DNA of 64,000 bases from Bacilli bacterium (lineage in GTDB: Bacteria; Bacillota_I; Bacilli_A; ML615J-28; CAG-698), in contig JAFSVH010000101.1 in assembly GCA_017450215.1 (NCBI GenBank), forward strand, positions 1,534-65,533. Direction: 5' to 3'. How positions within the stretch are numbered: position 1 is the first letter of the stretch; every line of letters starts with the position of its first letter. The translations under genes and the position numbers were made by a program. Of this stretch, positions 6,908 through 34,428 are shown piece by piece. The notes under the pieces were generated by a model. That model was not told the DNA's origin. It did not search any database and saw only the letters and a program-made list of their open reading frames with translations.

Positions 6908-7387
6908 TTACTTCTTAATTTCCAGTGTAATTGTTACTTTATCACTTGTTGAAAGTAATTCTTTTATTTTATTCTCACTTAAATTGATACGACCAAGTTT
7001 AGTAAATGACCAACTATTATTACCATAATACAAACATATTTGATTAGAATTATAAAGTACTATATCACCTGGACCTACATTCATTCTTTCATCATTACTA
7101 ACTAATGTAAATCCTAGTAAACCTGTTTGTTCAAAATTACCATATTCATGTAATTCAATAGTTAATTCATTATTAATATGATTCATTAGATCTTTTACTG
7201 ATGCATTATCATACCATATTACATCAATTACATCACTTCCAATTTTTAATATCATTTTAACCTCTTCTGCTTCTTCTTCATTATTTGTTATATCATTAGT
7301 TGGTTTCGTGTTTTCTGTATCTTCATTATTATAACTACATCCAACTAATAATAACAATAAAACAAATATTAATATTATTCTTTTCAT
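6908..7387 (-). CDS. lipoprotein, cyclophilin-like (PF04126-type) domain
   Basis: Signal peptide with lipobox LLVGC, then a D/E/N-rich linker. The domain pattern IGSDVIDVIWYDNASVKDL...GPGDIVLYNSNQICLYYG matches the cyclophilin-like family. An own promoter and RBS AGGAGA lie upstream. Confidence 0.55.
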   Translation of the reverse strand: MKRIILIFVLLLLLVGCSYNNEDTENTKPTNDITNNEEEAEEVKMILKIGSDVIDVIWYDNASVKDLMNHINNELTIELHEYGNFEQTGLLGFTLVSNDERMNVGPGDIVLYNSNQICLYYGNNSWSFTKLGRINLSENKIKELLSTSDKVTITLEIKK

Positions 7388-7443
7388 ATTGTATTTCTCC
7401 TATGTCTATTTTACCACAATATCTTTCTTTTTCCCATAGATAA

Positions 7444-7480
7444 CAAAAAAAGCCAGTCTTGTGGACTGACAGTTTTTATT
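7444..7480 (-). terminator. bidirectional hairpin terminator after the AKR operon
   Basis: CCAGTC-ttgtg-GACTG hairpin at 7453-7469, flanked by an A-run (7445-7451) and a T-run (7473-7480). Confidence 0.45.
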
Positions 7481-8321
7481 TTGCTTCATATGTAGGATGC
7501 CATTTAGCATATTCTTCAACACGATCATCATCTGCTTCATATCTACGCTTTCCTACATTTAATTTTGCCATTTTTTTCATATCATCATTATCTAACTTGA
7601 AATCAAATATATTAATATTATCTTTAATATGATCTACATTCTTAGAACCAGGAATTACAATAAATCCCATTTGATTATGCCATTTTAATACTACTTGAGC
7701 AGTTGATTTATTATGCTTTTTCGCTATACCCTTTACTATCTCACTATCAAGAAGTTCAGCAGTCATTCCTTTTCCACCTAGTGGATACCAGCTCATTATT
7801 CTAATGTTTTCTTTTTCTGTTATTTTTCTTAGATTATCTTGTGGGAAAAATGGATGACATTCAACTTGAATAACTTGAGGAATAATATCATATTCATCTA
7901 ATACTTCATTGATATGTTTTTCAAAATTAGAAATACCAATTGATTTAATTTTACCTTCTTTATAAGCTTTTACTAACTGATCATATCCATGACGCCAATT
8001 AGATGTTGCTTGATGAATAAATAATAAATCAATATAGTCTACTCCAAGTCTTTCTAGTGTTTCATCAACTGCGTTAGGATTTTCGTATTCAGAAGCCCAT
8101 AGTTTAGTAGACAAAAAGATATCTTCTCTTTTGATACCACTATCTTTCATAGCACGCCCAACTGCTCTTTCATTACAATATGCATTTGCAGTATCAATTA
8201 ACTTGTAACCTAATTTTAATGCATTTAATACACTATTATAAGCATCTTTTGGTTCAAGTAGGAATGTCCCAATTCCTACACTTGGCATTAATACATTGTT
8301 GTTTAATTTAAATTCTTTCAT
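7476..8321 (-). CDS. aldo/keto reductase (2,5-diketo-D-gluconate reductase-like)
   Basis: Motifs LMPSVGIGTF, IDTANAYCNE and IPGSKN typical of the AKR family. Confidence 0.9.
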   Translation of the reverse strand: MKEFKLNNNVLMPSVGIGTFLLEPKDAYNSVLNALKLGYKLIDTANAYCNERAVGRAMKDSGIKREDIFLSTKLWASEYENPNAVDETLERLGVDYIDLLFIHQATSNWRHGYDQLVKAYKEGKIKSIGISNFEKHINEVLDEYDIIPQVIQVECHPFFPQDNLRKITEKENIRIMSWYPLGGKGMTAELLDSEIVKGIAKKHNKSTAQVVLKWHNQMGFIVIPGSKNVDHIKDNINIFDFKLDNDDMKKMAKLNVGKRRYEADDDRVEEYAKWHPTYEAK

Positions 8322-8322
8322 C

Positions 8323-8835
8323 TTATAAATTCTCCTTTATCCATTTTTCTACTTTGTCTTTTGATTGATATACATTTGATCCAACAATGGCTAGTCCACT
8401 TTTAATTGTTGCATTTGGTGCATATTTTTTAATATCTCTTACAATACTAGCTAAGCCACTTCCTTCATGCGTTGAAAATGGCATAATTACTTTACCATCA
8501 AAATTTAATCTAGAAAGAAGAGTAAACATTGGTTGTGGTAATGTCCCCCAATATATTGGTCCACCAATAAAGATAACATCATAATTACTTATATCATCTA
8601 AATAATTCTTTAATTCTGGAAGTTCACCATTTCTTTGTTCTATCTTAGCTTCTTCAATACAAGTTCTATAATCTTTAGCATAATCGATCTTTCTTTCAAC
8701 TTTGAATAGATCAGCTCCCGTAATATCCCTAATCTCCTCCGCAACAACTTCTGTATTCCCTTTAGTGATGTACCGCATTGCACCACCAAAATAATTTTCA
8801 TCAATTCTTGAAAAATATATTACAAGTGATTTCAT
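8323..8835 (-). CDS. flavodoxin-family protein
   Basis: MKSLVIYFSRIDENYFGG N-terminus and ~170 aa flavodoxin-like fold. Stop/start adjacent to the AKR gene. Confidence 0.7.
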   Translation of the reverse strand: MKSLVIYFSRIDENYFGGAMRYITKGNTEVVAEEIRDITGADLFKVERKIDYAKDYRTCIEEAKIEQRNGELPELKNYLDDISNYDVIFIGGPIYWGTLPQPMFTLLSRLNFDGKVIMPFSTHEGSGLASIVRDIKKYAPNATIKSGLAIVGSNVYQSKDKVEKWIKENL

Positions 8836-8846
8836 TGTTTAACTCC

Positions 8847-9383
8847 TTATACATTTAATCCCATTTGGTATGCTTCAATAAATGAAGCTTTTTCTTTTAT
8901 TTCACCTTTTTGATAAACACCAATTCCATAAATAATGCCTTTTTCAACTGCACCTTCTACACAATCAGCATAACCTCTAAAACATTCAATAGTACGCTCT
9001 TGTGAAGTTTTATCGTCATCGGCACAAGTTACAATATAATAGAATTCTTTATTTTTAACTTCTTCCCAACGAGCAACAGTTCGATCAATTAATGCTTTTA
9101 ACTGTGCATCAATAGAATAAAAATAAACAGGACTTGCTAAAACTATTACATCGCTATCTATCATCTTTTGTAAAATAGGAGCCATATCATCTTTAATAGC
9201 ACAAATACCATTTGACTTTTGACAATAATAACAAGCAGTACAGTATCCAATTTTCTTTTCCGATACTCTTATCTTTTCAACATCATGCCCTGCATCCTTT
9301 GCTCCACGCATGAATTCATCACATAAAAGATCTGAATTTCCACCCTTTCTAGGGCTACCTGATAATATTAATACTTTCTTCAT
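8847..9383 (-). CDS. NADPH-dependent FMN reductase-like / iron-sulfur flavoprotein (Isf-like)
   Basis: MKKVLILSGSPRKGGNS flavodoxin-like N-terminus plus compact Cys motif CTACYYCQKSNGIC (CX2CX2CX6C), as in iron-sulfur flavoproteins. Confidence 0.7.
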   Translation of the reverse strand: MKKVLILSGSPRKGGNSDLLCDEFMRGAKDAGHDVEKIRVSEKKIGYCTACYYCQKSNGICAIKDDMAPILQKMIDSDVIVLASPVYFYSIDAQLKALIDRTVARWEEVKNKEFYYIVTCADDDKTSQERTIECFRGYADCVEGAVEKGIIYGIGVYQKGEIKEKASFIEAYQMGLNV

Positions 9384-9386
9384 TAT

Positions 9387-9914
9387 TTATTTCTCCTTAT
9401 ATTTATTTATATAATTTAATACTATTTCTTCTACTTCTATGGCTCCATCAGTAAAGCACCATAAATTAAGGGCACCATAATATATACTTACTATTTCTTT
9501 TGCGATTTCTTCATTATATAATTCTTTAACATATGCTAAATCATAAGCAAGTTTAGTCTTACCATGAAAGCCACCTAATACTCCATGACTAAACCATACT
9601 TGACACATCTTTAAGCCACTTTTCTTTATTCTTTTAATTGAAGTTATAAGAAAATATTCTAATTTCTCATATTTAGAATAATCACCTTCTAATTTAGAAT
9701 CATCAAAATACATGCTTATTTGTTTTTCAATTAAATCTTCTTTGGATTCAAAATGAATATAGAATGCTCCTTTCGACACTCCTGCTTCTTTTGTAATTTC
9801 TGATACTGAAACATTATCGAATCCTTTTTCATTAATAAGCTTTAATGCTACTTCAATTATTTTGTCTTTATTTTCATTAGATTTTGCTGTTCTTGATTCA
9901 TTATTGTATTTCAT
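9387..9914 (-). CDS. TetR/AcrR family transcriptional regulator
   Basis: N-terminal HTH FDNVSVSEITKEAGVSKGAFYIHF. First gene of the TetR-Isf-flavodoxin-AKR operon. Confidence 0.8.
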   Translation of the reverse strand: MKYNNESRTAKSNENKDKIIEVALKLINEKGFDNVSVSEITKEAGVSKGAFYIHFESKEDLIEKQISMYFDDSKLEGDYSKYEKLEYFLITSIKRIKKSGLKMCQVWFSHGVLGGFHGKTKLAYDLAYVKELYNEEIAKEIVSIYYGALNLWCFTDGAIEVEEIVLNYINKYKEK

Positions 9915-24881: not shown

Positions 24882-25140
24882 CTCATCACATCCTTATAAT
24901 TTCATATTTTTTATCAATATTATTTTATCTTTTTATTTAGTTTTATGCAATAATAACATCACTTTATACATAATAAAAATAGGTAAAAAATATGGTAAAA
25001 AATATACAACAAATTACTAGCAATAAAAAATCAGTTATGTTATAATCGTTATACTACCCTTTAGAAAAGCTTATAAAAAAAAAGTATAAATTTATAAATG
25101 CCAAAATAATCAGATTTAAAAAAGGGTATTAAATATCAAT

Positions 25141-26100
25141 ATGAATGATAGACTAAGAACAAACGAAACTTTACCCGATTTTGTTTCTACTCAGCATAAT
25201 TATCATACATTAGATTATTATTTTAAAAAGAAATACAATTCTAAAGTATTTAAAGTTGCCTTGAATGGTGACTTTTCTTGTCCGAACAGAGATGGCACTA
25301 TCTCTAAAGATGGTTGCATCTTTTGTAGTGACAAGGGAAGCGGAGAATTTGCTGGAGATAAACAAGATCCATTAAAAATTCAATTTAATAAAATTAAGGA
25401 CATAATTCATCTTAAATGGAAGGATGCTTTATACATTGCCTATTTCCAAGCAAATACTAACACTTATGCACCTTTATCAAAATTAAAGCGATTATTTGAA
25501 GAAGCAATTAATCTTGATAAAAACATTGTGGCAATTGACATTGCAACTAGACCAGATTGCTTATCAAGTGAATGCTTAGATTTTTTAGCTGAATTAAACA
25601 CTAGATGTAAAGTAATAGTCGAACTAGGACTACAAACCATCCACGAAGAAACAGCAATATTAATAAATCGTGGTTATAATTTAAATTGCTTTACTGAAGC
25701 AGTAAAGAAATTAAGGGAAAGAAAAATTGAAGTAATTGTCCATATTATTAATGGATTACCTCATGAAAGCTATGAAATGATGCTAGAGACTGCCTCATTC
25801 TTAGCTCATCAAGATATCCAAGGAATTAAGATTCATTCTTTATATATATTAGAAGGAACAAAAATTGCTTCAATGTATAAAAGCAATGAATTTAAGGTGC
25901 AAACTTTAGATGAATATGTGAAAACTGTGGCAAATCAACTTACTCTTTTAAGAGAAGATATTGTAATCCACAGAATAAATGGAGACCCACCAAAAGAGGC
26001 TCACATAGCCCCTGATTGGTGCTTAAAAAAGTTCGTTATTATGAACGAAATTGATAAATATATGAAGAAAAACGGACTCGTTCAGGGAGCACGTTTTTAG
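25141..26100 (+). CDS. radical SAM protein, TIGR01212 (YhcC-like) family
   Basis: FSCPNRDGTISKDGCIFC cysteine motif characteristic of this family. Confidence 0.8.
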   Translation: MNDRLRTNETLPDFVSTQHNYHTLDYYFKKKYNSKVFKVALNGDFSCPNRDGTISKDGCIFCSDKGSGEFAGDKQDPLKIQFNKIKDIIHLKWKDALYIAYFQANTNTYAPLSKLKRLFEEAINLDKNIVAIDIATRPDCLSSECLDFLAELNTRCKVIVELGLQTIHEETAILINRGYNLNCFTEAVKKLRERKIEVIVHIINGLPHESYEMMLETASFLAHQDIQGIKIHSLYILEGTKIASMYKSNEFKVQTLDEYVKTVANQLTLLREDIVIHRINGDPPKEAHIAPDWCLKKFVIMNEIDKYMKKNGLVQGARF

Positions 26101-26179
26101 TATTTGTCAACAAAAAAATGAGAAAAAATCAATGTAAATTCAATGAAAATTTTTCACATTTTTTCTTGTTTTCTTTTGC

Positions 26180-26208
26180 TTGACTATACTTTTTTTGTTT
26201 GTTATACT
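26180..26208 (+). promoter_or_regulatory. nrdD promoter TTGACT-17-TATACT
   Basis: TTGACT at 26180-26185, 17-nt spacer, TATACT at 26203-26208. Confidence 0.5.
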
Positions 26209-26253
26209 GACTATACATTGTGAATATAATAGAAAATGGAGGGGTATGTTATA

Positions 26254-28626
26254 ATGTTAAACGTGAAAAAAAGAAACGGTGAAATCGTTGCTTTTGACAT
26301 TACAAAAATTGAAAAAGCAATTGAACAAGCCTTTAAATCCGTAAAGCGTGAATACTCAAAAGACATGTTAGAATTACTTGCTTTAAGAGTAACCGCTAAC
26401 TTTACAGAAAAAATACAAAATGGTGTTATATCTGTAGAAGACATCCAAGATAGTGTTGAAATTGTGTTGATTCAATCACAATTTGTGGATGTTGCAAAAT
26501 CTTATATTATTTATAGAAAACAACACGAAAAAATTAGAAATACTAGAAAGACTATTCTAGATTATAAAGATACAATTAATAATTACCTAAAAATAAATGA
26601 CTGGAGAGTAAAAGAAAATTCTACAGTTACTTATTCAGTTGGTGGTTTAATCCTATCAAATTCAGGTGCATTAACTGCTAATTATTGGTTAAGTGAAATC
26701 TATGATTCTGAAATTGAAGAAGCACATAGAAATGCTGATATTCATATTCATGACTTATCAATGTTAACAGGTTATTGTGCAGGTTGGTCATTAAAGCAAT
26801 TAATCAAAGAAGGTTTAGGCGGTGTTCCAGGAAAGATTACTTCTGCTCCTGCTGCTCACCTTTCTACTTTATGTAATCAAATGACTAACTTCTTAGGTAT
26901 TATGCAAAATGAATGGGCTGGAGCTCAAGCTTTCTCATCATTTGATACATACCTTGCACCATTTGTAAAAGCTGACAACTTAACATACAAAGAAACAAAG
27001 CAATGCATCCAATCTTTCATTTATGGTGTTAACACTCCTTCTCGTTGGGGTACACAAGCACCATTCACTAACATCACACTTGACTGGGTTGTGCCAAATG
27101 ATATGGCTGAGTTAAATGCAATCGTTGGTGGAAAAGAAATGGATTTCAAATATAAAGATTGCGTTAAAGAAATGGCAATGGTAAACAAAGCTTTCATCGA
27201 AATCATGATTGAAGGTGATGCTAATGGCCGTGGCTTCCAATATCCAATCCCTACATATTCTATCACTAGAGATTTTGATTGGAGTGATACTGAAAACAAT
27301 CGTTTATTATTTGAAATGACTGCTAAATATGGAACTCCATACTTCTCTAATTATATAAATTCAGATATGGAACCAAGTGATGTAAGAAGCATGTGCTGTA
27401 GATTACGTCTTGACTTACGTGAATTACGTAAAAAATCAGGTGGTTTCTTTGGTAGTGGTGAATCAACTGGTTCAGTTGGTGTAGTTACACTTAATATGCC
27501 TCGTCTAGCATATTTATCAAGTGATATAGATGACTTCTATAAGAGATTAGATCACTTACTAGACATTTCAGCAAGATCATTAAAGATTAAACGTGATGTC
27601 ATCACTAAATTCTTAGATGCTGGTCTTTATCCTTATACTAAACGTTATTTAGGCACATTCAATAACCACTTCTCTACAATTGGACTAGTTGGTATGAATG
27701 AATGCTGCTTAAATGCAAAATGGTTAAAGAAAGACTTAACTCATAAAGATAGTCAAGAATTTACAAAAGATGTTCTAAACCACATGAGAGAACGCCTAAA
27801 AGATTACCAAGAAAAATATGGCGACCTTTATAACTTAGAAGCAACTCCAGCAGAATCAACAGCTTATAGACTTGCTAAACACGATAAGAAGAGATTCCCT
27901 GACATCATTACTGCTTCTGATGGTGATGCTACTCCATATTATACTAATAGTTCTCATTTACCTGTTGGTTATACAGATGACATCTTCAAAGCTTTAGATG
28001 TTCAAGATGAATTACAAACACTTTATACATCAGGAACTGTTTTCCATACATTCTTAGGTCAAAAGCTTCCTGATTGGAAGTCTTGTGCTAAATTAGTTAG
28101 AAAGATCGCTGAAAACTACAAGCTTCCTTATTATACAATGTCTCCAACATATTCAGTATGTTCTAAACATGGTTACATTGAAGGCGAAGTTTATATTTGC
28201 CCTGAATGCGGAAGAAAGACTGAAGTATATAGTAGAATAACTGGTTACTATCGTCCTGTTCAAAACTGGAATGATGGAAAGACTGAAGAATTCAAGAGTA
28301 GACGCACATATATAATTGAAACTTCAAAGATGAAGAGAAAAACACATGAAGATGAAGCTTTAGAATGTGCACAACCAGAAGCAAAGGAAATGTCAGATAA
28401 GTTGTTATTATTTACTACTCCTACATGTCCTAATTGCAAAATGGCTAAAGCAATGTTAAAGAATGCAAATATTGATTATGTATCAATAGATGCAGAAGAA
28501 AACAAAGATACAACTTTAAAATTCGGTATTAAAAAAGCACCAACATTATTAGTTCCAACTGAAAATGGTTATGAATATTTTGATAATGCTAGTGAAATTA
28601 AGAGATATATCGAAAGTAGAAAATAA
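26254..28626 (+). CDS. nrdD: anaerobic ribonucleoside-triphosphate reductase (class III) with C-terminal glutaredoxin/NrdH-like domain
   Basis: N-terminal ATP-cone, glycyl-radical motif SRITGYYRP, zinc ribbon CPECG. Extra ~75-aa C-terminal domain LLLFTTPTCPNCKMAK...APTLLV at about 28402-28623. Start at ATG 26254 (GGAGG upstream) rather than track start 26236. Confidence 0.9.
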   Translation: MLNVKKRNGEIVAFDITKIEKAIEQAFKSVKREYSKDMLELLALRVTANFTEKIQNGVISVEDIQDSVEIVLIQSQFVDVAKSYIIYRKQHEKIRNTRKTILDYKDTINNYLKINDWRVKENSTVTYSVGGLILSNSGALTANYWLSEIYDSEIEEAHRNADIHIHDLSMLTGYCAGWSLKQLIKEGLGGVPGKITSAPAAHLSTLCNQMTNFLGIMQNEWAGAQAFSSFDTYLAPFVKADNLTYKETKQCIQSFIYGVNTPSRWGTQAPFTNITLDWVVPNDMAELNAIVGGKEMDFKYKDCVKEMAMVNKAFIEIMIEGDANGRGFQYPIPTYSITRDFDWSDTENNRLLFEMTAKYGTPYFSNYINSDMEPSDVRSMCCRLRLDLRELRKKSGGFFGSGESTGSVGVVTLNMPRLAYLSSDIDDFYKRLDHLLDISARSLKIKRDVITKFLDAGLYPYTKRYLGTFNNHFSTIGLVGMNECCLNAKWLKKDLTHKDSQEFTKDVLNHMRERLKDYQEKYGDLYNLEATPAESTAYRLAKHDKKRFPDIITASDGDATPYYTNSSHLPVGYTDDIFKALDVQDELQTLYTSGTVFHTFLGQKLPDWKSCAKLVRKIAENYKLPYYTMSPTYSVCSKHGYIEGEVYICPECGRKTEVYSRITGYYRPVQNWNDGKTEEFKSRRTYIIETSKMKRKTHEDEALECAQPEAKEMSDKLLLFTTPTCPNCKMAKAMLKNANIDYVSIDAEENKDTTLKFGIKKAPTLLVPTENGYEYFDNASEIKRYIESRK

Positions 28627-28641
28627 AAAAGAGATTAAATT

Positions 28642-29556
28642 ATGTATGATATCCTAATTATAGGTGCAGGAGCAGCAGGTATGACTGCTGCTCTTAATGC
28701 ACTAAGAAACAATAAAACTGTATTAGTAATAGAAAAAGAAACAATCGGTGGACAAATTGCCTCTTCACCAAAAGTAGAAAACCTTCCATCAATCAAAGAA
28801 ATCTCTGGTGTAGATTTTTCAAGTCAACTATATGATCAAATAGAAGCATTAGGATGTGAATTTGATTTTGATGAAGTTAAATCAATTGAAAAAATCGATG
28901 AAGGCCACTTCAAAATAATATCTGAATACAATGAATATGAAGCTAAATCAGTTATCATTGCAAGTGGAGTTAAACATCGTCATCTAAATGCTATCAATCA
29001 TGATTTATTAGATGGTAGAGGCATATCTTATTGTGCAGTATGTGATGGTGCCTTTTACAAAGATGAAATCGTCAGCGTAATCGGAGATGCTAATACTGCT
29101 TTACAATATGCACTTCTTCTCGCTAACACATCTCTTAAGGTATATTTATGTTGTCTTTTCGATAAATTATTTGCTGATAAAATCTTAATTAATCGTGTAA
29201 TAAAAAATCCAAGAATTGAAATAACTTATAATATTTCTCTTCTTGAATATTTAAAAGATGACAATAATAAACTTAAAGGTTTAAGGTTTGAAGATACTAA
29301 AACTAAAAAAGAAATAATCTTTGATTGCAAAGGCTGTTTTGTTGCAATAGGACAAATCCCTGACAATGAAAAATTCTCTAATTTAGTAGACTTAGAAAAA
29401 GGTTTTATCAAAACTAATGAATTGTGTGAGACAAAAACAAAAGGCTTATATGCTATTGGTGATTGTAGAGTTAAAACGCTTAGACAGGTTTCTACTGCTG
29501 TAGCTGATGGCGCTATTGCTGCCTTTTATGCAATTAATTATGTTGATTCTTTATAA
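28642..29556 (+). CDS. thioredoxin-reductase-like flavoprotein (CAVCDG redox centre), NADPH-binding motifs degenerate
   Basis: FAD motif IIGAGAAG and redox-active CAVCDG. VIGGGDSA is replaced by VIGDANTA and the HRRD Arg pair by CCLFD. Confidence 0.8.
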   Translation: MYDILIIGAGAAGMTAALNALRNNKTVLVIEKETIGGQIASSPKVENLPSIKEISGVDFSSQLYDQIEALGCEFDFDEVKSIEKIDEGHFKIISEYNEYEAKSVIIASGVKHRHLNAINHDLLDGRGISYCAVCDGAFYKDEIVSVIGDANTALQYALLLANTSLKVYLCCLFDKLFADKILINRVIKNPRIEITYNISLLEYLKDDNNKLKGLRFEDTKTKKEIIFDCKGCFVAIGQIPDNEKFSNLVDLEKGFIKTNELCETKTKGLYAIGDCRVKTLRQVSTAVADGAIAAFYAINYVDSL

Positions 29557-29565
29557 AAAAGAATG

Positions 29566-29604
29566 TGACTTGTATCAAAAATAGATACAAGCCACTTTTT
29601 TTAT
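29566..29604 (+). terminator. bidirectional terminator between the converging nrdD-trxB-like and nrdG operons
   Basis: CTTGTATC-aaaaata-GATACAAG stem, flanked by a T-run on plus and an A-run upstream. Confidence 0.55.
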
Positions 29605-30623
29605 TTAAATAAATGTCCTTCTATAACTTTCACAATTTTTTCTAAATTAACTTTATCATTATCAGAGAATCTATAAAAAGATGGACTATCAATATCCAAA
29701 ACACCATAAATATCATTACCATTATAAATTGGAATAACAATTTCAGATTTAGATCTTGCATCACAAGCAATATGACCATCAAACATCAAGACATTACCAA
29801 CAACTAATGTCTTACCTAGTTCTACACTTCTAAAGCAAACACCACGACCACGTTTTAAAACTGTACATGCAGGTTCACCCATAAATGGTCCTAACAATAA
29901 TTCATCATTTTTATATAAATAAAAACCTAACCAATTAATATTATCTATATTATGATAAAGCAAACTTGCTGTGTTTGCTAAAACGGAAATATCAAAATTA
30001 ACATCATTATTCAAACTATCAACATTAGTTATTAATTCTTTATATTTATCTACTTTATAACCAAATACTTTTGCTAAATTAGAATTCTTATAATCACTAT
30101 CTAAGCTTACATCGCTATAGATATAAATATCATAATATTTAGTAAATACTTTTTCTATTTTCTCTTTAATAGCATCATTTACTTCATCTACTTCAATCTC
30201 ACATGTAAAGAATTCAGTTTTTAAATTTAAATATTCATCAAATTCAAATTTTAATACTTTATTTTCATTCTTCTTATCAATTTGAACTTCATCAATAAAT
30301 CTATTCTTTAAAACGAAACTTTCAATATTATCTTCTTTAATTAAATCATTAAAAACTAATTCACTTATCTCTTTTTCGTATTCTTTTCTAGAATAGAGAA
30401 CAGATTTAGTCTTTAATGTTGCAACGTATTTCACATTATTACTAATTATCTTTCTAACTCTAATTGTATGAATAGATTGGAAATTTAAATCATCAAATAT
30501 ATTGCTTAAAATAAAAACAACTTCTTTATTACGTTTCAAATAATATTGACTAATATTAATTGGATTATTTAATTTATCAGGTAATATATTAATTCTATAT
30601 TTTAATTCAGTTTCAACAGCCAT
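29601..30623 (-). CDS. CYTH-domain / free methionine-(R)-sulfoxide reductase (GAF, fRMsr) fusion protein
   Basis: N-terminal ETELKYR (CYTH ExExK) and FTCEIEVDE. C-terminal WLGFYL...GEPACTVLKRGRGVCFRS...FDGHIACDARSKSEIVIP...GVLDIDS matches fRMsr including its three Cys. RBS AAGAGGT. Starts 1 nt after the nrdG stop. Confidence 0.75.
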   Translation of the reverse strand: MAVETELKYRINILPDKLNNPINISQYYLKRNKEVVFILSNIFDDLNFQSIHTIRVRKIISNNVKYVATLKTKSVLYSRKEYEKEISELVFNDLIKEDNIESFVLKNRFIDEVQIDKKNENKVLKFEFDEYLNLKTEFFTCEIEVDEVNDAIKEKIEKVFTKYYDIYIYSDVSLDSDYKNSNLAKVFGYKVDKYKELITNVDSLNNDVNFDISVLANTASLLYHNIDNINWLGFYLYKNDELLLGPFMGEPACTVLKRGRGVCFRSVELGKTLVVGNVLMFDGHIACDARSKSEIVIPIYNGNDIYGVLDIDSPSFYRFSDNDKVNLEKIVKVIEGHLFK

Positions 30624-30624
30624 T

Positions 30625-31323
30625 TTAATAACCTCTTAAATATACATTATCTACATATTCACTTAATATGTCTTTATATTTATTAGCTTCTTCTAAACTA
30701 ATTTCATGAAACCCACCTTTTATGCAGGTACCATGATCAACAAATTTTTGTAAATAAAGTTTCTTTGCTCCTTTTACAAGCTTTCCCATTTTTTTGATAT
30801 TTTCTTCATCATGAAATTCTTTAATTAAAGTAGTTCTAAATTCATAATCAATCACATCGCTCTTTAAATAATCGATAGTTTCTTGAATCTTGTTAAAATC
30901 AAAAGATTCAACACCTATTGTCTCATTATATCTTTCTTTTGAATTCTTAATATCCATAGCAACATAATCAATTAATTTTTCTTCAACTAATTCTCTTAAC
31001 AATTTTAAATTAGAACCATTAGTATCAAATTTAATAAAATATCCGATTTCCTTTATCTGTTTTAATTTTTCCTTTAATCCTTCCATTAATGTTGGTTCAC
31101 CACCACTAATGACAACAGCATCTAGCATCTTCTTTCTTAATTTAAGATAATCTAAGATTTCGTCAAAATCAAAATAAGGATATCTTTTATAATCAATAAC
31201 TAAAGCAGAATTATGACAATATGGACATCGAAAATTACATCCTCCAGTAAATAAGGATGCGCATAAAAAATCATTTAAATCAACTAAAGATAATTTTTCA
31301 AATCCATAAAATTCTTTACTCAT
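30625..31323 (-). CDS. nrdG: anaerobic ribonucleotide reductase activating protein (radical SAM)
   Basis: TGGCNFRCPYCHNS cluster motif typical of NrdG/PflA-type activases. Confidence 0.85.
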   Translation of the reverse strand: MSKEFYGFEKLSLVDLNDFLCASLFTGGCNFRCPYCHNSALVIDYKRYPYFDFDEILDYLKLRKKMLDAVVISGGEPTLMEGLKEKLKQIKEIGYFIKFDTNGSNLKLLRELVEEKLIDYVAMDIKNSKERYNETIGVESFDFNKIQETIDYLKSDVIDYEFRTTLIKEFHDEENIKKMGKLVKGAKKLYLQKFVDHGTCIKGGFHEISLEEANKYKDILSEYVDNVYLRGY

Positions 31324-31382
31324 AAAAGCCTCTTTATTATTTTTATAAAACTGGCAATAATAACATTGCCAGTTTCATATTA

Positions 31383-32579
31383 TTATTTATTGATAAAATA
31401 ATTCTTAATTTCTTCTACTTTATCTACTTTTTCCCAACTAAATTCATCTTCACCGAAGTGACCATAATTTGTTGTTCTAGCATAGATTGGAGTTCTTAAT
31501 TTCAAATGCTTAATTAATCCACCTGGAGTAAGTGGGAAGATAGCTCTAACCATTTTAATTAATTCATTATCACTATATTTACTTGTACCAAATGAATCTA
31601 CTCTAACTGAAGTAGGTTCAGCAACGCCAATAGCATAACTAACTTGTACTTCAACACGTGAAGCAATGCCACTTGCAACTATATTTTTTGCAATATATCT
31701 CATCATATAACAAGCACTACGGTCAACCTTTGAAGGATCCTTTCCAGAGAAAGCACCACCACCATGATGAGCAATTCCACCATATGTATCAACAATAATC
31801 TTTCTTCCAGTCAAACCGCTATCACCTACTGGTCCACCAATACAAAATCTACCAGTAGGATTGATAAGATATGTAGTCTTTTCATCTATCAATTCTTTAG
31901 GAATTACATATTCAATTACATTTTTAATAATGTAATCTTTTAAAAATTCCATATCTACATCTTCTGTGTGTTGAGTTGATAATACAACATTATCTACTCT
32001 TTCCATTTTTCCATTTTTATATTCAATTGTAACTTGTGCTTTTCCATCAGGACGTAAGAATTTAGCACCATTCTTTCTAAGTTGAGCAAGTCTATGTGTT
32101 AAATCATGAGCAAATCTAATAGTTGCAGGCATTAATTCCTTTGTTTCTGTACATGCATAACCAAACATCATACCTTGGTCGCCTGCACCTTTATCATCCC
32201 CAACACCTAAATTAATATCTGGAGATTGACCAATCAATCTAACTTGAATAGGAATAGTATTACCATTAAATCCTAATTCATCATTATCATAGCCAACATC
32301 GCATATTACTTTTCTAGCTATTTTTTCTGGATCAACTTTTTCAAAATTATTACAAGTTATTTCACCAAAAATAACAACAGCATCAGCACAAGCTATTACT
32401 TCACAAGCAACATGAGCTTTTTCATCAACAGATAAATAAGCATCCAAAATTGAATCAGCTATTTTATCACATAATTTATCTGGATGTCCTTCAGTTACTG
32501 ACTCAGATGTAAATAATATTGAGTCATCTTTAATTAAATTTTTTAATTCTTTTGATTTTTCAAGTTTTTGTTCTTTCAT
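31383..32579 (-). CDS. metK: S-adenosylmethionine synthetase
   Basis: GHPDKLCDKIADSILD and GGGAFSGKDPSKVDRSA. Confidence 0.95.
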   Translation of the reverse strand: MKEQKLEKSKELKNLIKDDSILFTSESVTEGHPDKLCDKIADSILDAYLSVDEKAHVACEVIACADAVVIFGEITCNNFEKVDPEKIARKVICDVGYDNDELGFNGNTIPIQVRLIGQSPDINLGVGDDKGAGDQGMMFGYACTETKELMPATIRFAHDLTHRLAQLRKNGAKFLRPDGKAQVTIEYKNGKMERVDNVVLSTQHTEDVDMEFLKDYIIKNVIEYVIPKELIDEKTTYLINPTGRFCIGGPVGDSGLTGRKIIVDTYGGIAHHGGGAFSGKDPSKVDRSACYMMRYIAKNIVASGIASRVEVQVSYAIGVAEPTSVRVDSFGTSKYSDNELIKMVRAIFPLTPGGLIKHLKLRTPIYARTTNYGHFGEDEFSWEKVDKVEEIKNYFINK

Positions 32580-32712
32580 TTTTTATTCCTTCTACAAATG
32601 CTTTTTCTTATTATAAAAAATTATATTTTATAATTATTATTTATAATTATTATTATTTATAATTTTTTTATAAGAATATATTTAGTTTTTTTAAGTTAAA
32701 CTATAAAACTTT

Positions 32713-34428
32713 TTATCTAGATTTCTTTCTAGATTTATTAGCTTTTGAATCTTTGCTTCTTTTGTCGCTACTATTTTTAGATGTTTTTCTACTTCCACCT
32801 ATATTTCCACTCTTCATCTTAGCTTCTTCTAACACAATACGTTTAGTACCTAATTTAACTTTGTTGAAGGAATATAAGACAACATCAATTTTCTTCTTTG
32901 ATACTTCAAAGAAAGAAAAATCATCATGCATCTCAGTATTATTAATATCATCTCTTCTTATTCCACTTTTACTACTAACAAGATTTAATAAATCTTTAAT
33001 AGTAAAGCCATCTCTTTTACCAATATTAATAAATACTCTAATGTCACCACTCTTTGTCTTTGCTTTTCCTTCATCAACTTTCACATTCTCAATTTCTTTA
33101 AGTTCATTAAGTTGCATTAGAATTAGACCATTAATAACTTCATAAGGATTAAGTGATTTAGATACAATACTATTATATATTTCATCATTCACAATCTTAT
33201 AATTCTTTGCTAAAGTGTTTGTTTGCATGCTTGTTTGTTTGTCACTTAAATTATTTAAACTAAGTTCACATGCTTTATTAATGATACGATCAATTCTAAT
33301 TTTTAAAACTCTATTTAAATTTGGAACATCTAATTTAGTAATTGTTGCTTTAGAATAAGCCATTATGCTACGTAAACGATATCTTTCATCAGGTGTAACT
33401 AAAGTAATAGACATACCATCTTTTTTAGCTCTACCAGTTCTACCAACACGATGTACATAATATTCTTCATCTTCAGGAACATCATAATTAATGACAACAT
33501 CAACATCGTTAATATCAAGACCACGAGCAGCAACATCACTAGCAACTAAGATGTTAACAAGGCCATCTTTAAATCTAGCCATTGTTCTATCTCTTTGCAT
33601 TTGCTTCATGTCACCATGCAACCCTTCAACAACGTATCCTCTTTGCATTAAGCCAGATGTAACTTCATCAACTGCTTTTTTAGTATTACAAAAGACCATC
33701 ACAATTTGAAAATTATTAACATCAATTAGTCGAGACATTAATTCAATTTTATCTTGTTCTTTAATTAAACAATAATATTGTTTAACTGTATCAACTGTAA
33801 TTGTGTCAAGAGTTGTCTTGATATTAATTGGATTATTTAAATATTCTTCACAAATTCTCTTAATTTCATCAGAGAAAGTCGCTGAAAAGAGCATTGTATT
33901 ATGTGGTGAAGAAATTCTATCCAAGATATTATCAATATCTTCTCTAAATCCCATATTAAGCATTTCATCAGCTTCATCTAATACAACCCATTTAACACAA
34001 TCTATTTTAATAGTCTTTCTATCTAAATGATCAATCAATCTTCCTGGAGTAGAAACAATAATTTGAGGTTTTTTCTTCAATTCACGAATTTGCTTTTCAA
34101 TATCTTCGCCACCATAAATACTAACAACTTTTATTCCTTCCATGTATTTAGCATAATTCTTAAAATCATTAGTAATTTGGTTAGCTAATTCTCTTGTTGG
34201 AGCAACAATTAAAGCTTGAACGTGATTATCACTTTCTTTAATATTATTTAAAATAGGAAGTCCAAAAGCACAAGTCTTTCCTGTTCCTGTTGGTGCTTGT
34301 GCAATTAAATCACAAGACCTAAGAGCAACTGGAATAACTCTTTCTTGAATATCTGTTGGGCTAGTAAAACCCAAAGCTTCTACTGCTTTAATTAGACGCT
34401 CATTAATAGCAAATTCATTAAATTTCAT
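32713..34428 (-). CDS. DEAD-box ATP-dependent RNA helicase with basic C-terminal tail
   Basis: AQAPTGTGKT, DEAD, SAT, HRVGRTGRAKK. C-terminal K/R/S-rich tail. Confidence 0.9.
   Translation of the reverse strand: MKFNEFAINERLIKAVEALGFTSPTDIQERVIPVALRSCDLIAQAPTGTGKTCAFGLPILNNIKESDNHVQALIVAPTRELANQITNDFKNYAKYMEGIKVVSIYGGEDIEKQIRELKKKPQIIVSTPGRLIDHLDRKTIKIDCVKWVVLDEADEMLNMGFREDIDNILDRISSPHNTMLFSATFSDEIKRICEEYLNNPINIKTTLDTITVDTVKQYYCLIKEQDKIELMSRLIDVNNFQIVMVFCNTKKAVDEVTSGLMQRGYVVEGLHGDMKQMQRDRTMARFKDGLVNILVASDVAARGLDINDVDVVINYDVPEDEEYYVHRVGRTGRAKKDGMSITLVTPDERYRLRSIMAYSKATITKLDVPNLNRVLKIRIDRIINKACELSLNNLSDKQTSMQTNTLAKNYKIVNDEIYNSIVSKSLNPYEVINGLILMQLNELKEIENVKVDEGKAKTKSGDIRVFINIGKRDGFTIKDLLNLVSSKSGIRRDDINNTEMHDDFSFFEVSKKKIDVVLYSFNKVKLGTKRIVLEEAKMKSGNIGGSRKTSKNSSDKRSKDSKANKSRKKSR

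Follow-up and report, generated by a model that had tools for sequence, protein, structure and literature searches.

Where does a flavoprotein of the thioredoxin reductase (TrxR) type obtain its electrons when its NADPH-binding site has been rebuilt, and which disulfide does it reduce? This question is raised by the second gene of an nrdD operon in a 64,000-nucleotide stretch of DNA (hereafter the window) from a Bacilli bacterium (assembly GCA_017450215.1, contig JAFSVH010000101.1, positions 1,534 to 65,533 of the forward strand). The first gene of the operon, nrdD, encodes a class III ribonucleotide reductase (RNR) with a glutaredoxin (Grx)-like domain at its C-terminus. A sequence-only reading had proposed that electrons run from ferredoxin or flavodoxin through the flavoprotein to the Grx domain of NrdD and on to ribonucleotide reduction. 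Our answer, to which we give a probability of about 0.6, is that this reductase, a member of what we call class A, has a rebuilt NADPH pocket, serves the Grx-like domain of NrdD, and takes its electrons from a donor other than NADPH, most probably a protein carrier.

The rebuilt NADPH pocket

The open reading frame (ORF) of the reductase is real; it starts with ATG and encodes 304 amino acids. Pfam Pyr_redox_2 (PF07992) spans the protein end to end (125 bits, aa 2-290). TIGR01292, the thioredoxin-disulfide reductase equivalog, matches over model positions 1-300/300 with 279.5 bits, below its cutoff of 343.45, and the score is thus short of that which marks low-Mr TrxB. Cluster members are labelled 'FAD-dependent oxidoreductase' by NCBI. 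The two-domain pyridine-nucleotide-disulfide oxidoreductase fold is present. The sequence-only reading had called the FAD (flavin adenine dinucleotide) GxGxxG motif and the redox-active CAVCDG intact, and alignment confirmed this at aa 8-13 and 131-136. The thioredoxin (Trx)-binding residues G125-R-G127 and F138 are kept alongside CxxC. An AlphaFold2 (AF2) model built on 43 family members had a predicted local distance difference test (pLDDT) score of 92.5, with 92-96 across residues 141-180, and Foldseek gave a template modelling (TM) score of 0.93 to B. cereus TrxR (7AAW). In this model the second Rossmann domain is complete and its beta-alpha-beta unit is in register with NADPH-dependent thioredoxin reductases (NTRs); only ligand-contact residues are altered.

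These alterations fall in two motifs. The register was fixed by HMMER residue alignments to the TrxRs of B. cereus, M. mazei and S. aureus, which are gapless in the relevant region. VIGGGDSAVEE of TrxRs is VIGDANTALQY in the reductase (aa 146-156), and where low-Mr TrxB has the pyrophosphate-binding GGGxxAxE it reads G-D-A-N-T-A-L-Q. V-H-R-R-D-x-L-R-A of TrxRs is C-C-L-F-D-K-L-F-A (aa 170-178), and the 2'-phosphate motif VxxxHRRDxxR of low-Mr TrxB is replaced by C-C-L-F-D-K-L-F. From the alignment register, L172, F173 and F177 are the equivalents of E. coli R176, R177 and R181. The sequence-only reading had described the same two changes, VIGGGDSA to VIGDANTA and HRRD to CCLFD, and the three alignments show that it was right. 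It had also named a different register, in which a working site might reappear, as what would overturn it. A regex scan of the whole protein showed that this does not hold: the sole GxGxx[GA] is the FAD site, with no second copy, the entire reductase has no RR dipeptide, and no Arg lies between residues 127 and 184. Because of this, the NADPH site cannot be restored in another register.

The altered pocket is strongly conserved. In a search of 5.8 billion proteins, the best 120 homologues (55-99% identity; uncultured Bacilli, Ca. Enteromonas and 'Mollicutes') all carried G-D-[AG]-N-[TS]-A and x-L-F-D-[KHR]-[FL]. In an alignment of 43 sequences (mean column identity 63%), D149, N151, Q155, Y156, L172, F173 and F177 were invariant, as were the FAD and CxxC residues. 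The loop position of the third Gly varies, being Ala in 72% of class A and Gly (GDGNTA) in 28%. The signatures G-D-[AG]-N-[TS]-A-x-Q-Y and T-L-F-D-K-F-F are shared by 28 GTDB species. Since the signature occurs in 120/120 homologues and the pocket residues are invariant, this degree of conservation indicates that the change is a conserved state, neither decay nor chance nor a sequencing error. We also searched 1.84 billion cluster representatives exhaustively with a profile and sorted the best 150 by motif. The class-A type made up 17 of them and canonical sequences 72; 12 belonged to a second non-HRR type, 47 had other non-HRR sequences, and 2 were partial. Among these best 150 representatives the class-A signature is found in at least 17 clusters at 50% identity, and the distribution of motif types shows that loss of HRR is common among TrxR homologues. 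The class-A pocket solution is a family of its own. As the pyrophosphate loop is rebuilt and Leu, Phe and Phe stand in place of the three arginines for the 2'-phosphate, NADPH is a very unlikely donor, and it is probable that the reductase does not use it.

A loss of motifs could also mean loss of function. In that case the reductase would be a decaying or catalytically idle relic, with NrdD running on formate and the gene drifting. The finger loop of NrdD keeps a Met that is associated with formate chemistry, and the TIGR01292 score below cutoff would fit as well. However, the FAD site, CAVCDG, the GD-motif and the pocket replacements are invariant or nearly so across sequences that are only 55-60% identical, the ORF is intact in every locus that we analysed (see below), and the CPNC site of the Grx-like domain is conserved too. 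The conserved motifs and intact ORFs therefore point to purifying selection on a new state, and a relic is very improbable.

The profile search also gave two side observations. The 47 of the 150 nearest representatives that have neither HRR nor the signatures of class A or of class B (described below) read, for example, QQFDHFTC, INRTENFKA or IYKKSELGG. The variety of cofactor sites in TrxR homologues of anaerobes, as far as these motifs tell, looks much wider than the few characterised groups. One representative (P0245) is a large multidomain fusion of 1427 aa, whose TrxR-like domain (residues 885-1191) has CGLCDG and GGGDPAVEE and no HRR.

NrdD as the probable dedicated client

NrdD of the window matches NF006126 (1135.7 bits), PF03477, PF13597 and PF00462. 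It is of the double-cysteine type and resembles NrdD2 in having the beta-A Cys, an xCCR loop and the active-site Glu: its finger loop aligns with SCCR 328-331 of T. maritima NrdD, its E535 with T. maritima E495, and the beta-A 'yC' is also aligned. The second loop cysteine and this Glu mark class III RNRs that can be re-reduced via a disulfide by a thioredoxin-type protein (PMC9669993, PMC4493059). Such a system has a thioredoxin-fold reductant and a reductase for it, and both are found here, as the fused CPNC domain and the adjacent gene of TrxR fold. The presence of a Grx domain on NrdD, as the sequence-only reading had it, was borne out by PF00462 (34.4 bits, above the cutoff of 22.9). A charged linker of about 25 aa separates this domain from the glycyl-radical domain. 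Assignment of the domain to NrdH-redoxin was rejected (TIGR02194, 21.3 bits; cutoff 85.75), and the NCBIfam redoxin models were all below cutoff (YruB 32.0 against 88.55, MJ0307 28.4 against 92.75). By these scores, 'generic Grx/Trx-like CPNC domain' is the best description of the NrdD tail.

The same pair of genes is found in many genomes. We scanned one genome per GTDB species and analysed the resulting 80 loci by local tblastn and ORF calls. An nrdD-grx gene lies directly upstream of the reductase gene in 66 loci, and in one further locus, at a contig edge, a Grx fragment is all that is left of it (67/80); in class A this applies to 27/27 evaluable loci. The NrdD cores in linked loci are 75-85% identical to that of the window, and the Grx-like domain shares its ORF with the NrdD core in every linked case. 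Every partner NrdD has the MCCR double-cysteine finger loop, nearly all with a CPNC redoxin site (60/66 nrdD-grx fusions). The intergenic distance is usually -8 to +70 nt. An nrdG gene, whose product activates NrdD, is near the pair in 46 related loci, and in an all-against-all clustering of neighbourhood ORFs, no families other than the reductase, nrdD-grx and nrdG proved to be conserved. The same picture came from two independent sets of contigs for which Pfam labels had been precomputed: a gene with ATP-cone, NRDD and Glutaredoxin labels, then the reductase gene, then a convergent radical-SAM (S-adenosylmethionine) gene. Thus, the second half of the proposed electron path, from the reductase to the Grx domain and ribonucleotide reduction, is strongly backed by synteny. 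TrxR-type enzymes that reduce Grx-like proteins are known, as is a Grx domain on an RNR subunit that acts as its reductant (PMC6187632; T. maritima TR, PMC5627308). Because of the strict synteny and fusion, the intact catalytic motifs on both sides and these precedents, the path from reductase through Grx domain to NrdD is well supported; its direction and partners are what we infer. It is very probable that the reductase is a dedicated NrdD-Grx reductase.

Could the enzyme instead be a general cellular thioredoxin reductase, which serves free thioredoxins and enzymes such as free methionine-(R)-sulfoxide reductase (fRMsr), with NrdD as one important client? The kept Trx-binding G-R-G and Phe138 would allow this. 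A member of the thioredoxin-dependent fRMsr family is encoded next door on the opposite strand, and the 64-kb window has no second TrxR and no free Trx. On the other hand, strict linkage to nrdD-grx extends over widely different Bacilli and Clostridia lineages, whereas other neighbours vary, and the unlinked TrxRs of the same search (12/12; lactobacilli, Shouchella, Lachnospiraceae) are all canonical HRR enzymes. In addition, nrdD-linked reductases have a relaxed G[R/K]G motif, with Glu in 61% of class B and Ala in 26% of all class C, and this suggests that they have adapted to another partner. A general role is thus rather improbable as the whole explanation, although it is compatible with a dedicated role in NrdD reduction and does not exclude it.

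Linked reductases occur in three states. Class C (11 linked loci, e.g., Pseudoflavonifractor phocaeensis) has the loop GGG[ND][ST]A and the 2'-phosphate site HRRDxFR. Class B (28 loci; Oscillospiraceae, Acutalibacteraceae) has GGGN[ST]ALQE and Q-N-L-x-x-L-T-G. Class A (28 loci including the window; Bacilli metagenome-assembled genomes, Ca. Onthovivens, Christensenellaceae) has the two signatures given above. Since canonical GGG/HRR reductases stand in the same module, as in Pseudoflavonifractor (L062), the role of the reductase is visible and the cofactor site is the part that changed. In a neighbour-joining tree, made with the motif columns left out and used as supporting evidence only, classes A and B fell inside the nrdD-linked group, away from unlinked NTRs, with linked class C basal; the bootstrap support of this topology is only 58-70%, which counts against our interpretation, and that for monophyly of all linked enzymes is 28%. 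The simplest reading is that an NADPH-type TrxR first became dedicated to the Grx domain of NrdD and that the donor site then changed in some lineages, with the acceptor kept constant. A few members are odd. The nrdD-linked reductase of Bacillales bacterium HK-STAS-FIRM-1 (L042, 8001-8852) has VVGGSDTA and Y-L-C-M-R-R-N-T-Y-S-P-S-A, and groups with class A in 91% of bootstrap replicates; its motifs may represent an intermediate between NADPH-type and class-A pockets or a partial reversion. Two others have GNGNTA with T-R-K-D (L024) and GGGNSG with V-S-G-N (L032).

Known reductants of class III RNRs are formate, Trx/TrxR/NADPH, and NrdH with ferredoxin:disulfide reductase (PMC9176816). The second of these, described for the NrdD2-type RNR of Neisseria bacilliformis (Wei et al. 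2014, as cited in PMC9669993 and PMC4493059), is similar in its double-cysteine loop and active-site Glu, and in that the disulfide is re-reduced by a thioredoxin-fold protein which is recycled by a flavoprotein of low-Mr TrxR fold. As far as the citing papers describe that system, it differs from ours, in which the redoxin is fused to the C-terminus of NrdD, the reductase is encoded in the operon and lacks both NADPH motifs, and the loop is MCCR rather than SCCR. In the NrdD3/NrdH system of Methanosarcina barkeri (Wei et al. 2015, as listed in PMC9176816), ferredoxin-level electrons likewise reach a class III RNR via a Grx-like redoxin; there, NrdH is a separate protein, NrdD has neither Met nor Glu (QCCR), and the reductase is, by the title of that study, a ferredoxin:disulfide reductase. 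Our module has a fused redoxin, MCCR and Glu535. The M. barkeri reductase is said to be an Fe-S enzyme unrelated to TrxR. Grx::NrdB of Facklamia ignava is another RNR subunit with a Grx domain fused to it, which serves the enzyme as its own reductant. That RNR, however, is of class I; the fused domain sits at the N-terminus of the subunit that generates the radical, and the fusion depends on glutathione (PMC6187632), whereas here the domain is C-terminal on NrdD, widespread, and has a TrxR-type partner. A single grx::nrdD fusion was found in RefSeq in 2018 (PMC6187632). In the papers searched we found a description neither of the widespread nrdD-grx/trxR/nrdG module, although Wei et al. 2014/2015 might mention fusions or neighbouring TrxRs, nor of the divergence of its reductase into NADPH-type, HRR-less and fully remodelled states. 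The locus represents a fourth reductant arrangement of class III RNRs, in which the redoxin is fused to NrdD and has its own TrxR-type reductase in the operon, and this arrangement is frequent among gut Clostridia and uncultured Bacilli.

The electron donor

Enzymes without an NADPH site are known among TrxRs, and as a working criterion, non-NTRs are those that lack both GxGxxA and HRRxxxR (PMC10880999). The reductase has neither motif and thus counts as a non-NTR. The sequence-only reading had seen in it the pattern of NADPH-independent TrxR homologues of clostridia, that is, the FFTRs (flavin thioredoxin reductases that depend on ferredoxin). This stood as far as the absence of both motifs goes, and the host is an anaerobic Firmicute, but membership in that family did not hold. 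In HMMER scores against PDB chains, canonical NTRs gave 150-207 bits over the full length, whereas the clostridial FFTRs 6GNA, 6GNC and 6GND gave 105-114, the FFTR of G. violaceus (5J60) 88.7, and DvTRi of Desulfovibrio vulgaris (5NII) 83. With the pseudo-NADPH domain alone (aa 118-244), the scores were 57-77 for NTRs, 27-32 for the clostridial FFTRs, 29.8 for 5J60 and 27.9 for 5NII, and the five non-NTR chains were the weakest of 48 PDB matches. Clostridial FFTR chains have 288-294 aa and align over about 276 residues, versus 298 of the query, which is collinear with NTRs. The reductase does not cluster with the FFTRs by these scores, its relatives in the same context include canonical NADPH enzymes, and it is very improbable that it belongs to the clostridial FFTR family. 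It is also unlike the cyanobacterial FFTR/DTR group, as it ends after its last helix (H283-303 of 304), contains no Trp, and no class-A member has a C-terminal tail. For the G. violaceus enzyme, GvFFTR, the FAD midpoint potential is given as -448 mV (PMC12796991). The DvTRi signatures GEGxxAxN and TQ/NGK are absent; the reductase reads GDANTALQ and CLFD instead. By motifs and scores, therefore, the reductase is not a member of any characterised NAD(P)H-independent TrxR group. Since FFTRs and DvTRi score weakest and the nearest same-context relatives are canonical, the site loss is best seen as an independent event inside the nrdD-linked lineage. A tblastn search for clostridial FFTR in a plasmid collection found only an AhpF homologue of C. 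butyricum beside ahpC.

The clostridial FFTRs of C. pasteurianum and C. acetobutylicum (6GNA-6GND) are nevertheless a functional model. They are TrxR-fold flavoproteins of anaerobic Firmicutes, with FAD and CxxC and without GxGxxA/HRRxxxR, in which electrons pass from ferredoxin to FAD, disulfide and redoxin. They pair with free thioredoxins in trxA-trxB operons (PMC10880999), whereas class A pairs with NrdD-Grx, is collinear with NTRs, and has its own conserved replacement residues. DvTRi is also similar, being an NAD(P)H-independent TrxR homologue of an anaerobe that arose from TR1-type NTRs and has a degenerate pyrophosphate motif (PMC5627308). It differs in being monocistronic, in reducing Trx1 and in having GEGxxAxN (PMC5627308), in contrast to GD[AG]NTAxQY, TLFDKFF and nrdD linkage in class A. 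Class A is a new, independently derived TrxR clade without NADPH motifs and with a defined, dedicated client, and it is the donor that we infer. Such proteins carry names like 'FAD-dependent oxidoreductase' or 'thioredoxin reductase (NADPH)', which is a problem for annotation.

The same dedicated NrdD-Grx reductase might instead receive hydride from NADH, or from NAD(P)H bound in a non-canonical way, in its remodelled Rossmann domain. This domain is whole and its fold is modelled with confidence; it retains G148 and A153, and no gene nearby encodes a protein donor. NADH-preferring TRs, among them DvTR3 and T. maritima TR, typically lack just the HRR site (PMC5627308). The TrxR of T. maritima (Yang and Ma 2010, as cited in PMC5627308) has the TrxR fold and has lost the HRR site; by that account it uses NADH and keeps the GGG loop, and its genes are neither fused nor linked to nrdD. 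Class A has lost this loop. The partner of the T. maritima enzyme is reportedly a glutaredoxin-like protein, in an organism with a double-cysteine NrdD. NADH-using TRs keep GGGxxAxE, which is degenerate in NAD(P)H-independent TRs (PMC5627308). Measured by this, the motifs of class B look like those of an NADH-type enzyme, and those of class A like the motifs of one that is independent of NAD(P)H. In class A the second Gly is an invariant Asp at the place where the pyrophosphate would sit, the third Gly is mostly Ala, Glu is Gln, and charged residues are replaced by invariant Tyr and Leu/Phe/Phe. No new acidic residue that could hold the ribose is seen at the beta-2 end, and D174 is present in NTRs too. 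Class B, with GGGN[ST]ALQE and QNL, could use NADH, and class A differs from it. A pyridine nucleotide as the donor of class A is therefore unlikely.

We favour a protein carrier because the charged pocket is replaced by Asp, Tyr, Leu, Phe and Phe, because of the analogy with FFTR and DvTRi, because of the anaerobic lifestyle, and because the activation of NrdG requires a low-potential carrier in any case. That this carrier is a ferredoxin or flavodoxin encoded elsewhere in the genome is a tentative proposal. The donor end of the electron path in the sequence-only reading, unlike the part from the reductase onward, is therefore unproven. Several observations weigh against our interpretation. 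In none of the classes does the module have a conserved neighbour that encodes a ferredoxin, flavodoxin or rubredoxin (>80 loci); a regex scan for signatures of 4Fe-4S ferredoxins, flavodoxins and rubredoxins, no farther than 4 kb from the gene, gave three sporadic matches only in 80 loci. The 64-kb window contains no Trx, ferredoxin or classical flavodoxin. As no carrier gene is linked, the assignment of the donor is by analogy only. There is neither a C-terminal aromatic tail like that of cyanobacterial FFTR nor an excess of positive charge for docking of an acidic carrier, the net charge of class A being equal to that of class C and thus uninformative on docking. The second Rossmann domain has full length and GDGNTA still fits GxGxxA, which makes binding of NADH or another dinucleotide compatible with the sequence. 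The AF2 model superposes on low-Mr TrxRs in the closed, flavin-oxidising (FO) conformation typical of NTRs, and FFTR crystal structures have been reported in open, flavin-reducing conformations only (PMC8469568). The comparison with FFTRs consists of HMMER scores against their PDB chains. Lastly, the Met kept in the MCCR loop leaves formate as a possible alternative reductant of NrdD (PMC9669993).

The sequence-only reading had also pointed to flavodoxin genes at 8323-9383. These encode a Flavodoxin_4 protein and an FMN_red protein, which are not classical electron-carrier flavodoxins, lie 19 kb away and are not conserved near the module, and this part of the proposal was dropped. Their cluster (6908-9914) looks like a detoxification cluster rather than an electron-carrier locus.

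We propose the following path with a protein carrier as donor. Electrons of the external donor would enter the FAD of the reductase and pass to Cys131/Cys134, and from there to Cys731/Cys734 (CPNC) of the NrdD tail. CPNC would then reduce the active-site cysteines of NrdD (the beta-A Cys and the MCCR finger loop, with Glu535 as proton source), and NrdD would reduce NTP to dNTP. The reductase would thus act as the dedicated disulfide reductase of the Grx-like domain on the NrdD encoded upstream, working like an FFTR without belonging to that family. If this is correct, many uncultured gut Bacilli and Christensenellaceae would supply themselves with DNA precursors independently of both NADPH and formate. 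The three states of the pocket, two of which cannot bind NADPH canonically, would form a testable donor-switching series with a fixed acceptor: NADPH for HRR, probably NADH for QNL, and a protein donor for GD..QY / LF..F. If the enzyme is driven by ferredoxin or flavodoxin, dNTP synthesis would be tied to the low-potential electron pool that is also needed for NrdG activation. That class A is a further independent pyridine-nucleotide-independent flavin disulfide reductase, wiring ferredoxin- or flavodoxin-level electrons into deoxyribonucleotide synthesis, is less probable than not. Class B has a net charge of about -16, versus about -9 for classes A and C.

The operon and its surroundings

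The features of the locus are collected in Table 1. The reductase gene follows the nrdD stop after 15 nt. With a promoter-like site 5' of nrdD, no terminator found between the two genes, and a hairpin after the reductase gene, the claim that they are co-operonic was upheld. The hairpin separates the convergent reductase gene and the minus-strand cluster. The nrdD ORF has 796 aa from the ATG at 26236. Because this ATG overlaps the ribosome-binding site GGAGG and homologue alignments begin at residue 7, translation probably begins at the ATG at 26254 instead, which follows GGAGG and would give a 790-aa product. An Rfam scan of 25000-33000 for a riboswitch or leader gave no match.

Table 1. Coordinates of features in the window, and of class B reductases in their own loci
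Feature	Position	Strand	Evidence or remark
Promoter-like site 5' of nrdD: TTGACT, 17 nt, TATACT, TG before -10 hexamer	26180..26208	+	10/12 matches
nrdD, class III ribonucleotide reductase: ATP-cone, NRDD core, glycyl-radical domain, C-terminal Grx-like domain	26236..28626	+	Pfam, NCBIfam
Finger-loop motif M386-C387-C388-R389, double-cysteine type	27391..27402	+	alignment to T. maritima NrdD
Grx/Trx-like domain fused to NrdD C-terminus, aa ~719-796	28390..28623	+	PF00462; PF00085 25.6 bits
Grx-like domain active site C731-P-N-C734	28426-28437	+	motif
trxR-like flavoprotein (class A), second gene of nrdD operon	28642..29556	+	ORF, Pfam, NCBIfam, alignments, AF2
FAD-binding GxGxxG = G8-A-G-A-A-G13	28663..28680	+	alignment, regex scan
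Redox-active disulfide motif C131-A-V-C134-D-G	29032..29049	+	alignment; kept in all homologues
Pyrophosphate loop G148-D-A-N-T-A-L-Q-Y156, replacing GGGxxAxE[DE]	29083..29109	+	alignment, conservation
2'-phosphate site C170-C-L-F-D-K-L-F177, replacing V-H-R-R-D-x-x-R	29149..29172	+	alignment, conservation
Bidirectional intrinsic-terminator-like hairpin, directly 3' of reductase stop	29565..29595		12-bp stem, T-runs on both strands
nrdG, NrdD-activating radical-SAM enzyme, third conserved module member	30625..31323	-	TIGR02495, 191 bits (cutoff 131)
Cyclophilin-like protein	6908-7387	-	cluster 6908-9914
Aldo/keto reductase	7476-8321	-	cluster 6908-9914
Flavodoxin_4 protein	8323-8835	-	cluster 6908-9914
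FMN_red (NAD(P)H-dependent FMN reductase family) protein	8847-9383	-	cluster 6908-9914
TetR regulator	9387-9914	-	cluster 6908-9914
Class B reductases in other loci	mostly ~8001-8900		L028-L031, L033, L035, L037-L039, L041, L044-L046, L048, L052, L054-L056, L058-L061, L063, L065, L068, L072, L073, L077

Near the promoter, the direct repeat TGACTATAC occurs in two copies 27-28 nt apart (26181-26225), one overlapping the -35 hexamer and the other just 3' of the -10 hexamer. These could be a pair of operator boxes of the NrdR type, with a closer spacing than the roughly 31-32 nt that is usual for such boxes. A radical-SAM protein with Radical_SAM_C is encoded immediately 5' of the nrdD promoter (25141-26100, +) and its gene is not conserved beside the module elsewhere.

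The minus-strand cluster (29601-32579) has the order metK (S-adenosylmethionine synthetase-like, 398 aa), nrdG and a gene for an fRMsr fusion. Thus, metK is directly upstream of the gene for the SAM-consuming NrdD activase. The cluster and the nrdD-trxR operon are convergent and have the hairpin terminator in common. The fRMsr-fusion gene (29601-30623, -) is not kept beside the module in other loci. Its product has 340 aa, with no family match for the N-terminal half (about 190 aa) and an fRMsr-type GAF domain at aa ~190-337, which matches S. aureus 3KSF with 149 bits and also E. coli YebR (1VHM) and N. meningitidis fRMsr (3MMH). As fRMsr is a thioredoxin-dependent enzyme family, this protein could be a second client of the local thiol-redox system.

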